From a virus (taxonomy: Duplodnaviria > Caudoviricetes), in IMG/VR virus record IMGVR_UViG_3300046318_000548, positions 1 to 41,923 of that record: 41,923 nucleotides of DNA, one strand, 5' to 3'. Position numbers and translations under genes: made by a program. This document shows, piece after piece, positions 666-7,588 of this stretch. The notes below the pieces were generated by a model. That model did not search any database. It was not told the DNA's origin and saw nothing but the letters and a program-made list of their open reading frames with translations. Position 1 is the stretch's first letter. Each line of letters opens with the position of its first letter.

Positions 666-674
666 ATATTTATA
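666..674 (+). promoter_or_regulatory. Candidate phage late promoter ATATTTATA
   Basis: Recurrent intergenic motif; here just after a terminator and 23 nt before ATG 698. Confidence 0.6.
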
Positions 675-2166: not shown

Positions 2167-2224
2167 TTAACAATTTCATAATATTAAAAGTATAATTTTA
2201 TTAAGGTAGTTTCCTATATATTGG
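2167..2224 (+). promoter_or_regulatory. Candidate host-type promoter with PhoB/OmpR-like direct repeat
   Basis: TTAACA (2167-2172) and ATAATA (2178-2183) at 11-bp period, then TATATTGG (2217-2224), one mismatch from the Bacteroidota -7 box TAnnTTTG. The ATATTTATA motif is absent here. Confidence 0.3.
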
Positions 2225-2243: not shown

Positions 2244-4727
2244 ATGAGGAAACTACTTTTATTATTAACGTTACTAATTCCCACAATATCCTTTTCACAA
2301 ACCTTATCAGGTAAAACAAAATCAAATAAAGAAGAACTCATTGGAGTTACCATTTGGCTAACTAACAAAGATACAAATAAAAAAGTTGGAAGTACATCTG
2401 ATATTGAATCCAAATATCAATTCCAAAATGTAGTAGCTGGAAAATATTCAATCAAAGCATCATTTGTTGGGTATAAAGAATACACAAACGATATTACAAT
2501 TAATGGAGATACCAATTTAGATATCCTAATTGAAGAAGATACAAAAGTATTGCAAGAAGTTGTAGTAAAGCAAGTAGCAAAGAAAGAAACTGCAACCGCA
2601 CTTATCAATACACTTAAAGCATCTTATATTGTAGCAGATGGTTTATCAATCGAATCAATAAAGAAAACGCCAGATAGAACTGTTGGAGATGCACTTAAAA
2701 GAGTAAGTGGTGTAACAATCCAAAACGATAAATTTGTTTTAGTTAGAGGTTTAGCTGATAGATACAACTCGGCTCTACTAAACAAATCAATTTTACCATC
2801 AACCGAACCTGATAGAAGAGCATTCTCATTTGATATTATTCCAACATCACTAATAGATAATATCATCATCAATAAAGGAGCATCGGCAAACCTACCGGGT
2901 GATTTCGCAGGCGGTTTGGTACAAATAACAACAAAAGAAGTTAGTGGTGATTTCTTAAATGTATCATTGGGAGGAAGTTGGGGTTCACTATCAACGGGAC
3001 GGGATTTTAGGTTGGTAGACCCAATACAATTCCCATCAACATTCCCATCAACAAACGGATATAGAATTGCGGGATTAGGTGATAGAAGAGCATATACTAA
3101 ACTAATAAGTTCTCCACAATCCGAAGAGTTTTCATCTATTCCAAACTTAAATGGTAACTTATCATTTGGTGTTGTAAAAAACAAATGGAACATCTTATTC
3201 AGTTCAACTGCAAGAAATACATATTCAGCTAATACAACCGAACGAATCGATTATCAATCATCAACTGAATTAGCATACAATTACAAAGACTTACATTATT
3301 CAAATGTACAATCTGTAAATGGATTATTGAACATAGTTTATTTGGGAGAGAATCGTTATAGTTTGAAAACACTTGCTAACTACCAAAACGAAAAATTATT
3401 TTTAAGTAGAGTTGGTGAGAACTACGATAATGTCCAGTATGTAGACAGTAAATCATCTAACTCAATTCAAAAGTTAGTATTCAATACACAATTTGAAGGT
3501 AAGATTAAAACATTGGATTTTAATGTAGGATACAATCTTATGTTGAGAGACCAACCCGATTATAGAGTAACACCTTACATATCATCTTTATACACAACAA
3601 CTCCTTACTCAATAGCATGGAGAGATACCTATCGTTTTTGGAGTGTAATGGATGAAAACTCATTCAATGGAGGATTGAACAGGTCCATAGGAGATATTCG
3701 CTTAGGAGTGGGTTACTTGAAGAAATTGAGAAACTTCAAAGCAAGAATATTCAGATACGAATCAACTGATTTATTAAATGAGATTACAAACAACACCGAT
3801 AGATATACTGCCGATTTTGATTTGGCAAATGGATATGTGATGTATGAAAAAGAAATCAATAACTTAAAAGTAAATACAGGTTTCAGAACAGAATACAATT
3901 TATTCAAAGTTCAAACATCTGATTTTAGTGGACAAAAGATTTCGGTAAATAGAGAGTATTTGGATTTACTCCCATCATTAAATGCAACATATTCAACATC
4001 GGAAAAAACAAAGGTTAGATTATCGGTAAGTAAAACATTAGCAAGACCGGAATTTAGAGAGGTAGCTAATTTTGCATATTATGATTTTGTTAGAAACGCA
4101 CAACTATTGGGAAATCCAAACTTACAAAAAACGGATATATTCAATTCAGATATAAAGTTTGAGTTATATCCAAAATCAGGTGAGAACATATCAATTGGTT
4201 TCTTTGGTAAGAAATTCTTTAATCCAATTGAGCAAGTTGTAGCAGATGGTTCAGTTCCATCAAATCTATTACTAACATATAAAAATCCAAATGAAGCATT
4301 GGTATATGGAGTTGAGATTGAACTTCGTAAAAAATTAAATGATTGGTTGGATTTATATTCAAACACATCATTCATCAATTCGGAAGTTGATATAAACGGA
4401 GTTAAAAGACAATTGCAAGGACAATCAAACTATGTAGTAAATGGTGGATTGAACTTACATAAAAACAACAATACATTCAACATATCATACAATAGAGTTG
4501 GAGATAGAATATCGGCAGTAGGATTTCAAGGATACCCTGATATATTTGAGAACTCTCGTGATGTAGTTGATATTGTTATTCTTCGTAAAATTAAAAACGG
4601 AGAAATTAAATTAGCAGTATCGGATATATTCAAACAACCATTTGAATATTACCAAAAACCAAATCGTACTTTAATTAAAACAAACAACGAAACAACAGTT
4701 TCACTAACACTAAATTACAACCTATGA
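2244..4727 (+). CDS. TonB-dependent receptor with N-terminal CarboxypepD_reg-like domain
   Basis: Signal peptide SFS-Q; N-terminal extension (Y.I.ASFVGYK); TonB-box-like LQEVVV; plug motifs DALKRVSGV, VRGL.DRYN, FDIIP..LIDNI.I.KG; barrel motifs TLARPEFREVA, GNPNL; terminal aromatic strand LTLNYNL. Confidence 0.92.
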   Translation: MRKLLLLLTLLIPTISFSQTLSGKTKSNKEELIGVTIWLTNKDTNKKVGSTSDIESKYQFQNVVAGKYSIKASFVGYKEYTNDITINGDTNLDILIEEDTKVLQEVVVKQVAKKETATALINTLKASYIVADGLSIESIKKTPDRTVGDALKRVSGVTIQNDKFVLVRGLADRYNSALLNKSILPSTEPDRRAFSFDIIPTSLIDNIIINKGASANLPGDFAGGLVQITTKEVSGDFLNVSLGGSWGSLSTGRDFRLVDPIQFPSTFPSTNGYRIAGLGDRRAYTKLISSPQSEEFSSIPNLNGNLSFGVVKNKWNILFSSTARNTYSANTTERIDYQSSTELAYNYKDLHYSNVQSVNGLLNIVYLGENRYSLKTLANYQNEKLFLSRVGENYDNVQYVDSKSSNSIQKLVFNTQFEGKIKTLDFNVGYNLMLRDQPDYRVTPYISSLYTTTPYSIAWRDTYRFWSVMDENSFNGGLNRSIGDIRLGVGYLKKLRNFKARIFRYESTDLLNEITNNTDRYTADFDLANGYVMYEKEINNLKVNTGFRTEYNLFKVQTSDFSGQKISVNREYLDLLPSLNATYSTSEKTKVRLSVSKTLARPEFREVANFAYYDFVRNAQLLGNPNLQKTDIFNSDIKFELYPKSGENISIGFFGKKFFNPIEQVVADGSVPSNLLLTYKNPNEALVYGVEIELRKKLNDWLDLYSNTSFINSEVDINGVKRQLQGQSNYVVNGGLNLHKNNNTFNISYNRVGDRISAVGFQGYPDIFENSRDVVDIVILRKIKNGEIKLAVSDIFKQPFEYYQKPNRTLIKTNNETTVSLTLNYNL

Positions 4728-5926
4728 AAAAATTATTAGTATTGTTCGCAAGTTTAACAATCTTTGGATGTTCTAAAGATTTAGGTGGTGAAGTAGCACC
4801 AATTAACGTACCATCATCAACAACTTTGACTGGTAATATTACTGCAACTACAACTCTTACATCAGATAAAGAGTGGGTATTAAAAGGATATGTTTATGTA
4901 ACCGATGGTGCTAAACTTATCATTCAACCTGGTACAATTATTAAATCGGATATAAGTGAGAAGGGTGCATTGTGTATCGAAAGAGGAGCACAAATTGTAG
5001 CAGAAGGAACTGTATCAAAACCAATTGTATTCACATCTGGTAGACCTGCCGGAGAAAGAACACCCGGTGATTGGGGTGGTATTGTAATATTAGGTAGAGC
5101 AAAAACCAATAGAACATCCGAACCAACTATCGAAGGTGGTATTGGTAGACCTTATGGTGGAACTAACGATTTAGATAATAGTGGTATCTTAAAATATGTT
5201 CGTATTGAATATGCAGGAATTGCAGCAATGCCAAACTCTGAAATCAACGCATTAACATTGGGTGGAGTTGGTAGTGGAACAATTATTGAGAATGTTCAAA
5301 CTATCTACGCTAACGATGATGCATTTGAATTCTTTGGTGGAACTGTAAATGCTAAAAATTTATATGCATACGGAACTGCGGATGATGACTATGATTTTGA
5401 TTTTGGATATAGAGGAAAAGTATCGTTTTCAGTATCAAAGAGAGACCCACAATTCGTAGATAACGGAGATGCTGGAAATGGTGTAGAATGTGATAACGAT
5501 GGAACGGGTTCATCCGCAGAACCATTTACACATCCTATTTTAGATAATATAATTTTGGTTGGACCTAACGATGCAACATCTTTATCAAACCACAATTTGG
5601 CAATGAGATGGAGAAGAGCAACTCAATTTGAGGTTTACAATTCTACAATCATTGGATATATGAAAGGTGGGTTATCAATGGAAAGTAATGAAACTGCACA
5701 ATTCTACAAAGATGGTGTGAGTAAGTTTCAGAATAACAAAATTGGTTCATTCAATTTATTAAACTTTATCAGTAAAGCAACTACTATTATTACATCGGAT
5801 GGGGTTAAAACAAAAGCATTGAGTGAAGGTAATACTGAAATAACTTTAACTGCTACTGAAATAGAAACTTTATCTAAACCAAATTGGATAGCCGGTTGGA
5901 CACGTTTTCCAACGAAAGGAAATTAA
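4724..5926 (+). CDS. Surface lipoprotein, beta-helix-like, partner of the TonB-dependent receptor
   Basis: Lipobox IFG-C16 then SKD; motifs LIIQPGTIIK, GTVSKPIVFTS, GDWGGIVILG, NSGILKYVRIEYAG, LGGVGSGT, DDAFEFFGGTV, DDDYDFDFGY; its ATG overlaps the receptor stop (ATGA). Confidence 0.8.
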   Translation: MKKLLVLFASLTIFGCSKDLGGEVAPINVPSSTTLTGNITATTTLTSDKEWVLKGYVYVTDGAKLIIQPGTIIKSDISEKGALCIERGAQIVAEGTVSKPIVFTSGRPAGERTPGDWGGIVILGRAKTNRTSEPTIEGGIGRPYGGTNDLDNSGILKYVRIEYAGIAAMPNSEINALTLGGVGSGTIIENVQTIYANDDAFEFFGGTVNAKNLYAYGTADDDYDFDFGYRGKVSFSVSKRDPQFVDNGDAGNGVECDNDGTGSSAEPFTHPILDNIILVGPNDATSLSNHNLAMRWRRATQFEVYNSTIIGYMKGGLSMESNETAQFYKDGVSKFQNNKIGSFNLLNFISKATTIITSDGVKTKALSEGNTEITLTATEIETLSKPNWIAGWTRFPTKGN

Positions 5927-5930
5927 AGTA

Positions 5931-5939
5931 ATATTTATA
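5931..5939 (+). promoter_or_regulatory. Candidate phage late promoter ATATTTATA overlapping a hairpin arm
   Basis: Recurrent motif; overlaps the 5' arm of stem 5937-5946/5963-5972 upstream of TTG 5975. Confidence 0.55.
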
Positions 5940-5974
5940 TCCGGTTACACTTCTAAATATTAAATCGGATATGG

Positions 5975-7588
5975 TTGAAAAAGTTAAGAGTTTTATTAAG
6001 TGTATTATTCATATTGTGTCTAGCTTCCAAAGCTAACGGACAAACATTTACACAAACATTTATAGATAAGTGTACTGGCGAAGTAAAAATCGCCACTACT
6101 ACTTATGTCAATGGAAATGCGTATGTATCTTTCTATGACCAAATGAAAATATTCACACCTCAAGAAGTTCAGAGTGGGGCAATGAACATTTGGTTACAAT
6201 CGGTATATTTAGCATATGCAAATAAAAATTGTACTACAAATGTAGTAGTACAACAAACTGTACAACAAACAGTCAATCAGGCAGTTCAACAGGCGGCAGC
6301 TCAGGCAGCAGCTCAGGCGGCAGCCGCCGCAGCAAAAGCAGCAGAAGCGGCAGCAGCCTCCGCAGCATCGGCGGCAGCAGCAAAAGCAGCAGAAGCGGCA
6401 GCAGCAAAAGCAGCGGAAGAAGCGGCGGCAAAAGCGGCAGCAGATGCAGCAGCAAAAGCCGCTAGTTCAGCTGCATCATCGGCGGCTAGTGGAGCAGCCA
6501 GTGGAGCTGCATCATCGGCAGCCAGTGGAGCGGCTAGTTCAGCTGCATCGGCGGCAGTAGCAACACCACCTCCACCAACTCCATCTACACCTGCTCCTGC
6601 TACTCCTGCGCCGGCGGCTAGTAGTTCACCTGCCCCATCATCAAATAGTTCGGCTAGTGGAGGAAATGGAAGTAGTAGTAGTAGTAGTTCATCATCTTCT
6701 TCATCAAGCAGTAGTTCATCTTCGGAAACTAAAACCGAAACCAAAACGGAAGCAAAAGCTGAAACTAAATCGGAAAATAAGAGTGAATCCAAATCAGAAT
6801 CAAAATCCGAATCCAAAGAGGAAAGTAAATCGGAAAGTAAGAGTGAGGAAAAGAAAGAAGAATCTAAATCCGAATCTAAAAAAGAAGAAAAGAAGGAAGA
6901 GAAAAAAGAGGAAAAGAAACAAAAAGCGGCACCAATAAATCCATTACTATTGGCATCTGATTTAAGTATTGTAGAATCAGAACCATCAAAGTGGGATGCA
7001 ATTTTAACAACTGGTATATCTCGTTCCTCAATGGCCGGAGATGAAAGTTATTCGGCTAGTTCTATGGTATGGAGTAGCTTAAAACAATTTGCTATAAGTG
7101 CCGGATATACTAAAATGAATTTCAAAGATGGTGCATTACACTCTATGAACTCTTACTCATTAACAGGTGCATATCTTAATAGAACTTATATGAGTTTAGT
7201 TGGATTAACCATAATTGTACCACATCCAAAAATTGGAGTATATGGTTACAATGTTGGTTTGGTTAATCTATTCTCTCCAAAGCAAGCTGGTGGATACGGG
7301 TATAGTGTAAGTAATTCAGGTGTATTGTTTTGGACTAAGCCATATCAAACTACAAAGAAACTAACTCTTTCACCGCAAGTGTTTACAATGTTACCTGGTG
7401 GAAGTTGGGATACCACTACTGGTTCATTTACTTATGGTACTGATGTTGGATTTTTATTGGGTACTTCAATCGATTACAAAATCAGTAAACGTTTTGGATT
7501 TAGTTTTAATTACAAAATCAATACGTCTACTGCGGCTGGAGCACCGATATTAAGTAACTTTTTAATTGGTTCGAGATTAATGCTTTAA
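5975..7588 (+). CDS. Secreted/outer-membrane protein with long low-complexity linker and C-terminal beta-barrel-like domain
   Basis: TTG start, signal peptide ANG-Q; Ala-, Pro-, Ser- and Lys/Glu-rich blocks; the C-terminal ~215 aa are alternating aromatic/Gly strands ending NFLIGSRLML. Confidence 0.7.
   Translation: MKKLRVLLSVLFILCLASKANGQTFTQTFIDKCTGEVKIATTTYVNGNAYVSFYDQMKIFTPQEVQSGAMNIWLQSVYLAYANKNCTTNVVVQQTVQQTVNQAVQQAAAQAAAQAAAAAAKAAEAAAASAASAAAAKAAEAAAAKAAEEAAAKAAADAAAKAASSAASSAASGAASGAASSAASGAASSAASAAVATPPPPTPSTPAPATPAPAASSSPAPSSNSSASGGNGSSSSSSSSSSSSSSSSSSETKTETKTEAKAETKSENKSESKSESKSESKEESKSESKSEEKKEESKSESKKEEKKEEKKEEKKQKAAPINPLLLASDLSIVESEPSKWDAILTTGISRSSMAGDESYSASSMVWSSLKQFAISAGYTKMNFKDGALHSMNSYSLTGAYLNRTYMSLVGLTIIVPHPKIGVYGYNVGLVNLFSPKQAGGYGYSVSNSGVLFWTKPYQTTKKLTLSPQVFTMLPGGSWDTTTGSFTYGTDVGFLLGTSIDYKISKRFGFSFNYKINTSTAAGAPILSNFLIGSRLML
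6290..6925 (+). repeat. Coding low-complexity/tandem repeats (GCA/GCG poly-Ala, poly-Ser, KSES, KKEE)
   Basis: Repeated gcagcagca/gcggcagca, agtagtagt/tcatca, aaatcXgaa and aaagaagaa; the poly-Ala part is GC-rich against the AT-rich background. Confidence 0.85.

Follow-up and report, generated by a model that had tools for sequence, protein, structure and literature searches.

Introduction

The two-gene locus considered here, from the IMG/VR virus record IMGVR_UViG_3300046318_000548 (Duplodnaviria; Caudoviricetes), consists of a gene for a TonB-dependent transporter (TBDT) followed by a gene for a surface lipoprotein, and described systems that resemble it are found in bacteria. In Flavobacterium johnsoniae, the system PUSIV comprises the TBDT Fjoh_0545 (PF07715, PF13715 and PF14905) and the lipoprotein FII (Fjoh_0546), which are encoded in a phoBR cluster and are strongly phosphate-induced; FII is 31 to 36% identical to a phosphate-induced Caulobacter lipoprotein (PMC8115612). 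Caulobacter crescentus ElpS (CC0170) and the TBDT CC0171 also form a lipoprotein-TBDT pair (PMC2996285). F. johnsoniae further has PusCD1/2, TBDT-lipoprotein complexes of the phosphate regulon that import organophosphate (bioRxiv 10.64898/2026.09.03.749221). On the viral side, host PhoBR controls pstS of cyanophages (Zeng and Chisholm 2012, as cited in PMC10976474). The initial annotation of the locus held that TBDTs are not standard phage cargo, but phage-encoded TBDTs are already in print: those of Mar_Mega_1 and LR745206 ('SusC') have been read as carbohydrate importers (PMC9723777), and a survey of 1,603 huge-phage outer-membrane proteins (OMPs), which are 22-stranded, found phosphate-acquisition genes near the larger OMPs in aquatic phages (bioRxiv 10.64898/2026.10.24.761521).

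The window analysed here is the whole of the virus record (41,923 nt, or 41.9 kb; CheckV completeness about 21%), a myophage fragment in which baseplate, tail fibre, primase and SbcCD genes are present. We consider it probable that its TBDT-lipoprotein pair is a phosphorus-acquisition module under Pho control.

Results

Architecture of the pair

The initial annotation had described a complete 827-aa TBDT joined at ATGA to a 400-aa lipoprotein, and the coordinates of the two open reading frames (ORFs), both on the + strand, bear this out (Table 1); every coordinate and motif that it cited was found to be correct. The TBDT matches PF13715 CarbopepD_reg_2, PF07715 Plug and PF14905 OMP_b-brl_3 above cut-off, and its AlphaFold2 (AF2) model (mean pLDDT 84) consists of an N-terminal extension, a plug and a barrel, with 22 strands as counted from DSSP elements. 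An LxEVVV-type strand before the plug is conserved in the alignment, and its residues 102 to 108 are presumably a TonB box, a label that we carry over from SusC-type transporters. TonB_C was found in none of five complete viral relatives; therefore, host TonB would power the transporter, in agreement with the initial annotation. The phage TBDT is about 100 aligned columns shorter than its non-Aquirufa bacterial homologues, with deletions in several blocks. The N-terminal extension is missing from some phage TBDTs, about 750 aa long, in which the TonB-box-like strand is kept (loci L017, L019, L023, L026, L038, L039, L062, L072, L073 and L079).

The modelled lipoprotein is a right-handed β-helix (pLDDT 89.9), for which the best structural match was AlgG (Z 24.0, rmsd 3.0, 265 residues aligned), with many β-helices tied. 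Its lipobox residue Cys16 is invariant in the aligned sequences, and a lipobox-like Cys is kept in 97 of 98 viral ORFs. The acidic motifs pointed out in the initial annotation lie at residues 198 to 206, 220 to 229 and 255 to 260. No match to the lipoprotein was found in local Pfam, PHROGs, NCBIfam or PDB sequences, and Foldseek with the model gave no match under E 0.001. No SusD Pfam family was matched, and the model is all-β, so it does not have the helical TPR lid of SusCD and PusCD systems; the partner is, as had been stated, not of the SusD kind.

Neighbourhoods of bacterial homologues

In GTDB, 92 relatives were found and 80 were kept, of which 11 were 75 to 80% identical (9 titled Aquirufa) and 69 were 47 to 64% identical, the latter mostly from Chitinophagaceae and Sphingobacteriales. 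Phosphate genes named by Pfam (PHO4, DUF47, Porin_O_P, alkaline-phosphatase superfamily, ppk or ppx) are present in 30 of 60 bacterial loci of at least 10 kb, as a raw count, and this becomes 38 when a PlcP-like gene, an unnamed porin or a two-component pair is added. Such a two-component pair is a frequent neighbour, and its regulator matches PhoB models best in NCBIfam, with scores below cut-off. The Aquirufa avitistagni locus runs from the TBDT and lipoprotein genes through an alkaline-phosphatase-superfamily gene, PiT and a phosphate porin gene to a glycosyltransferase and a PlcP-like phosphoesterase. The lipoprotein-TBDT-gsp order known from ElpS recurs at an alphaproteobacterial homologue (Indioceanicola; 35% identity, E 9e-50). 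The neighbour families scanned around the bacterial homologues included no recurring glycan-active enzyme family. Two of the loci (L147 and L154), from records titled Citrobacter and Brevundimonas, are Chitinophagaceae-like, and the titles look mislabelled; a search through the family of the L154 genome gave no Caulobacter-like matches.

The pair thus combines a lipoprotein with a lipobox and a pectin-lyase-like β-helix, an adjacent TBDT with all three Pfam domains, and homologues that lie near phosphate genes or gsp genes. On this architecture, fold and synteny, rather than on direct alignment to CC0170 or Fjoh_0546, it is likely kin by layout of the ElpS/FII (PUSIV) type. A link to phosphorus had been suggested in the initial annotation, and it is supported by the bacterial neighbourhoods, the PUSIV/ElpS-type layout and the shared promoter repeat described below.

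A repeat upstream of the TBDT gene

The canonical phage motif ATATTTAT was found at 666 and 5931, on either side of the pair, as had been noted; the TBDT gene also has a degenerate core of its own, which had been overlooked. Upstream of this core are two half-sites that resemble those of bacterial homologues. In 65 bacterial TBDT upstream regions, pairs of TAAYA half-sites occur 138, 93, 67 and 51 times at spacings of 11, 22, 33 and 44 bp, respectively, and at most 6 times at any other spacing. The bacterial half-sites lie 3, 14, 25, 36, 47, 58 or 69 bp from a TAnnTTTG-type box, which we take to be the Bacteroidota -7 element. Pho boxes are likewise built of an 11-bp direct-repeat unit (PMC4415409), and no published Bacteroidota PhoB consensus was found in the available literature for comparison with the repeat.

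A position weight matrix (PWM) trained solely on the 65 bacterial regions also marks phosphate genes outside the training set: it was positive for 12/14 unnamed porin, 12/32 PiT and 5/12 PlcP-like genes, compared to 11/477 other genes. Two repeats at 11-bp spacing, of a kind shared with bacterial phosphate genes, stand upstream of the pair. In the window, the site at 2167-2184 scored 11.6, the third best value, and both better sites are inside genes. Its first half-site and the core stand 47 bp apart, which is the modal spacing of the phage relatives and a position in the bacterial register.

The same arrangement recurs in other phages. Of 48 distinct phage TBDT upstream regions, 36 exceed the 95th percentile of other phage upstream regions, and 37 have a TAn(T/A)TAT(T/A) core; the first half-site is 47 bp from the core in 24/36 and 36 or 58 bp away in 6 more. 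A repeat at that distance was present in 28/37 phage TBDT promoters versus 2/155 other phage promoters. No repeat was found at the PstS-like gene in five genomes of the genus Aquirufa, where this gene lies in an exbD-tonB-like operon and not in pstSCAB; there was no clear repeat upstream of phage phoH in five genomes, and none upstream of phage PlcP-like genes (0/5).

Spread, residence and selection in viruses

Relatives of the lipoprotein are encoded in 133 of 151 pattern-matched IMG/VR stretches, the best 80 of them at 73 to 95% identity, and the TBDT gene is directly 5′ of the lipoprotein gene in all 59 viral loci with at least 2.6 kb upstream. When the slot was anchored on the neighbouring phage gene 8502 (80 loci fetched), the lipoprotein was found in 9 of 11 loci in which 4 kb or more of the slot could be seen. 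Four complete virus records chosen for the lipoprotein (171 to 326 kb) all carry the TBDT, together with baseplate genes, and the TBDT is absent from a fifth (289 kb, chosen via gene 8502); the module is common but accessory. PhoH is present in 5/5 complete relatives and PstS in 0/5.

The ratio of nonsynonymous to synonymous substitution rates (dN/dS), calculated pairwise between the window and 14 chosen phage copies, was 0.08 to 0.25 for the TBDT (one pair saturated) and 0.08 to 0.22 for the lipoprotein, and three neighbouring phage genes gave 0.05 to 0.13. The TBDT and the lipoprotein are under purifying selection.

Long residence of the pair in the phage had been suggested because Asp codons before C read GAC. 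Both of the contexts cited, at 3015 and 3546, were located, and the pair has three such codons, GAC in 3/3, which is weak evidence taken alone. Stronger support came from GATC, which is absent from the pair (0 observed versus 18.6 expected) as it is from the window (0 versus 155), and from codon use, for which the distance of the pair was 0.090 to phage genes versus 0.179 to Aquirufa genes. The suggestion is therefore borne out. In relatives, the GATC status of the pair mostly tracks that of its own phage; in four loci (L008, L048, L057 and L068), GATC is absent from the pair and present in the flanks, which suggests that the pair was recently passed on by another phage, one that avoids GATC. 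CATG, too, is strongly under-represented in the window (1-41923; 10 observed versus 132 expected), and it is likely a second host restriction site.

The right junction of the pair is spanned at the DNA level by 10 loci, and the left junction is spanned contiguously by none, because relatives hold about 1.1 kb extra there. Both sides of the left junction match the same phage relatives at 83 to 97%, so the difference is an indel within phage DNA and no bacterial chimera; the chimera at 2.2 or 5.9 kb that the initial annotation had named as refuting its reading was not found. The closest bacterial identity is 72% for the TBDT and 81% for the lipoprotein. The pair is intact, lies among viral genes, is conserved and is under purifying selection; it is genuine viral cargo and can be classed as auxiliary metabolic genes. 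At 2164-2167 and 5926-5975, the window is without genes that its closest relatives hold on both sides of the pair, and these are hot spots at which genes come and go.

In 8 of 74 viral loci, a PlcP-like phosphoesterase gene is within 3 kb 3′ of the lipoprotein gene, which fits the phosphorus theme. A glycosyltransferase-2 gene and a PlcP/LpxH-like metallophosphoesterase gene directly follow the lipoprotein gene in L004 (4399-5986), L005, L007, L014, L015, L026, L028 and L032; this insert is absent from the window, and it is found in L376 without an adjacent lipoprotein gene.

A distant pair in reversed order is present in the 635-kb megaphage LR745206 (L102, 11755-15595), with 27% identity for the TBDT and 37% for the lipoprotein, and this is probably a separate capture. 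Because a lipoprotein of the ElpS type is directly upstream of the LR745206 'SusC', the published carbohydrate reading may be wrong. A NAD salvage-like gene pair was seen by eye near this 'SusC'.

Exchange of alleles with Aquirufa

In a sample of the family of Aquirufa, 240 of 251 genomes have a homologue, and only 6 exceed 52% identity. Within the genus, 55 of 64 genomes match: 12 have the phage type (76 to 81% identity), 6 an allele of about 450 aa, 32 one of about 600 aa, and 5 a partial or weak match. The three allele types occupy the same chromosomal slot in the regions fetched, and the trimmed phage-type allele fills this native slot as the sole copy in 12 genomes, so it is probably a working transporter there.

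Trees were made from identity-thinned subsets of 62, 59, 40 and 31 rows, with the LR745206 locus excluded from the TBDT trees. A single clade (support 100), with deletions in common, unites the phage proteins and the phage-type proteins of Aquirufa; it falls on the Chitinophagaceae/Sphingobacteriaceae side, and the other Aquirufa alleles cluster with their own family. The phage-only clade asked about in the initial annotation is therefore not what was obtained, as the Aquirufa allele belongs to the clade. Mapped onto an rpoA tree of the 37 genomes in which both markers are present, the phage-type allele requires 6 changes, and the approximately unbiased (AU) test rejects monophyly of this allele (p-AU 1e-71), with the caveats that rpoA is about 5 kb from the slot in one genome (G001) and that bins may be mixed. 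This scatter indicates that the allele moves sideways.

The trees conflict on whether the phages were donor or recipient of the Aquirufa allele. In the lipoprotein tree, the phages form one clade, sister to Aquirufa (98); the TBDT trees nest Aquirufa within the phages, and the AU test does not reject phage monophyly (p 0.17). A concatenated mixture tree also nests Aquirufa in the phages, and the constrained tree is 7 log units higher (p 0.62). Low fourfold-site GC of the phage-type pair of Aquirufa was considered as a sign of phage origin and rejected, as native alleles are equally low. Two loci (L219 and L230) carry different alleles of the genus behind a near-identical promoter repeat array and flanks upstream of the TBDT gene, so the host promoter was kept and the coding cassette behind it was exchanged.

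Aquirufa as the phage host is a lead only, and from the kinship with this genus we infer a freshwater setting. A possible history, which we put forward tentatively, is that the phage lineage captured an ElpS/PUSIV importer from a Chitinophagaceae/Sphingobacteriaceae-like donor, trimmed the TBDT (by about 100 aa) and the lipoprotein (by 41 aa) and sometimes removed the whole N-terminal extension, and placed the pair behind a hybrid promoter needing host PhoB and the phage core; the pair, by then improved in viruses, would now have returned to scattered Aquirufa species, replacing the native allele as the only copy.

Genes around the pair

The pair is surrounded by a conserved block of envelope genes. 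One of them, at 698-1417, encodes an exported, phage-specific protein that resembles CsgG/LpoB in some features (atlas score 0.94). Directly 5′ of the pair, at 1424-2164, is a class 3 lipase gene that is linked to it in 16 viral loci; the product could act on host lipids. The gene at 5975-7588, carried by 47 viral loci, encodes a 537-aa exported protein in which an Ala-, Ser/Pro- and Glu/Lys/Ser-rich linker joins conserved N- and C-terminal parts, the latter barrel-like by eye.

Table 1. Coordinates of the TBDT-lipoprotein pair, its parts and the nearby promoter elements in the window.
Feature	Positions	Strand	Remarks
TBDT, 827 aa	2244..4727	+	Signal peptide, N-terminal extension, TonB-box-like strand, plug, 22-strand barrel
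TonB-box-like segment, residues 102-108	2547..2567	+	From the alignment; retained even in phage forms without the N-terminal extension
Surface lipoprotein, 400 aa	4724..5926	+	Lipobox Cys16, right-handed β-helix, PF28492 Beta_helix_4; likely ElpS/FII type by layout
Acidic cluster D198-D259	5315..5500	+	Unchanged across 52 sequences from phages and bacteria; probable site for a metal or ligand
R295/R297/R298 patch	5606..5617	+	Invariant; possible anion contact
Two 11-bp-spaced TAACA/TAATA half-sites	2167..2184	+	Predicted Pho-box-like operator
Promoter core TATATATTG, degenerate phage motif	2215..2223	+	Appears to occupy the bacterial TAnnTTTG-box position relative to the repeats
Canonical phage promoter-like motif	666..673	+	Upstream of the 698-2164 genes
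Canonical phage promoter-like motif	5931..5938	+	Directly 3′ of the lipoprotein gene, before gene 5975

Discussion

In the phosphorus-acquisition module that we propose, PhoB~P of a phosphate-starved host would bind the repeats and, with the core, would drive transcription of both genes together. Placing the barrel and the lipoprotein in the outer membrane would fall to host machinery; there, the lipoprotein may serve as a lid or capture protein, with its acidic cluster and arginine patch binding a phosphorus-bearing anion, perhaps bridged by metal. Host TonB-ExbBD would pull the TonB-box-like strand and so import a phosphorus compound to the periplasm; host phosphatases and PiT would complete the uptake, and the imported phosphorus would feed phage DNA synthesis. 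The cargo might be polyanionic organic phosphorus, polyphosphate or metal-bound phosphate.

Several points weigh against this proposal. Half of the large bacterial loci are without a Pfam-named phosphate gene, and the count for the other half is a raw one. The repeat of the window is only the third-best site in the contig, no more than two repeats are left in the phage against several in bacteria, 12 of the 48 phage upstream regions are below threshold, and the L031/L054 lineage has no repeat. In the comparison of phage TBDT promoters with other phage promoters, the tested range of 41 to 52 bp was picked after the spacing had been seen, and the phage promoters are related by descent. Among host phosphate genes, the motif is rare before OprP (2/7), AlkP (2/12) and ppk (0/4), many of which are operon-internal. 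Predicted Pho boxes in phages are described as unreliable and often fail (PMC10976474), cc0171 was reported to be constitutive, unlike elpS (PMC2996285), and the function of Pus3/Pus4 has been called hard to predict (bioRxiv 10.64898/2026.09.03.749221). The lipoprotein fold generically matches glycan lyases, epimerases and tailspikes (Z 24 and below), and the location of the pair within a block of phage envelope genes also fits surface remodelling.

There is a smaller but appreciable chance that the pair is phosphate-regulated and has another cargo, such as a glycan or a metal that phosphatases need as cofactor, or that it is an ElpS-like booster of extracellular phosphatase, anchored by the TBDT. 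ElpS increases the activity of secreted phosphatase, with no change in phosphate uptake detected (PMC2996285), and carbohydrate import is the published reading of the megaphage TBDT (PMC9723777); in addition, the β-helix resembles glycan-active folds, and the conserved residues of the lipoprotein are 20 acidic versus 11 basic. However, the TBDT has 25 conserved basic residues, no glycan-active enzyme family recurred among the scanned neighbour families, and PusCD1, of the same regulon, imports organophosphate (bioRxiv 10.64898/2026.09.03.749221).

We think it unlikely that the phage TBDT or lipoprotein displaces or masks the receptor of competing phages, as in a receptor swap or superinfection exclusion. 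This idea has been raised for huge-phage OMPs (bioRxiv 10.64898/2026.10.24.761521), and it would agree with the loss of about 100 TBDT columns in several blocks, with the place of the pair among envelope genes including that of a CsgG-like protein, and with receptor-driven selection as the cause of single-slot allele swapping in Aquirufa. A decoy, however, would need no phosphate-type operator, and the TonB-box-like strand, the plug and the lipoprotein core are conserved under purifying selection; the trimmed allele also serves as the only copy in the 12 Aquirufa genomes.

Transcription by the phage's own programme regardless of phosphate, with the repeat as an inherited relic, is improbable. 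The core is phage-like, a quarter of the upstream regions have no good repeat, and many phage half-site copies have drifted to TAATA; yet the repeat and its 47-bp spacing persist in copies whose synonymous divergence from the window reaches about 1 or more. An assembly chimera or bacterial contamination, for which no more can be cited than that no relative is contiguous across the left junction, is hardly credible given the gene in 133 viral stretches, the TBDT in four complete virus records with baseplate genes, the phage's own GATC avoidance in the pair and a best bacterial identity of 72% (TBDT) and 81% (lipoprotein).

Phosphorus limits phage production in nutrient-poor waters, and the textbook viral answer is the pstS and phoA genes of cyanophages under host PhoBR. 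If the proposed phosphorus module is real, phosphate-starved infected cells import a phosphorus source through a phage-encoded transporter, and the pair is a Bacteroidota counterpart at the outer membrane: a host-energised two-part importer with a host starvation switch, common in a large phage lineage. The trimmed form, as a natural minimal version found in cultured Aquirufa strains, gives a handle on the cargo of the widespread ElpS/FII pair, and the allele common to phages and Aquirufa clearly exemplifies how an uptake system is exchanged between phages and bacteria. In the available literature, no paper was found that links a phage TBDT to an ElpS/FII partner, a Pho-type operator or Aquirufa; Supplementary Table 7 of bioRxiv 10.64898/2026.10.24.761521 may list these proteins.

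Comparison with known systems

Like PUSIV, the phage pair has a TBDT with the same three Pfam domains followed by a non-SusD lipoprotein of pectin-lyase fold, and its homologues stand beside phoBR-like genes, a phosphate porin and a glycosyltransferase; unlike PUSIV, it is phage-encoded, trimmed and without an attached regulator or phosphatase. Compared to the ElpS locus, the gene order is reversed, there are no type II secretion genes, and the lineage is that of Bacteroidota and viral. PusCD1/2 use SusD-type lids, whereas the phage lipoprotein is a β-helix, as in the 'alternative SLP' class of pus3/pus4. The TBDT is phage-encoded like those of Mar_Mega_1 and LR745206 and the huge-phage OMPs; the available text of the two studies concerned (PMC9723777; bioRxiv 10.64898/2026.10.24.761521) does not name the lipoprotein partner, the ElpS/PUSIV link, the operator or Aquirufa. 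Finally, the pair resembles cyanophage pstS as a candidate phage phosphate-acquisition gene set behind a host Pho-type operator, here a predicted one, and it differs from pstS in that it would form an outer-membrane, TonB-powered importer of two parts.

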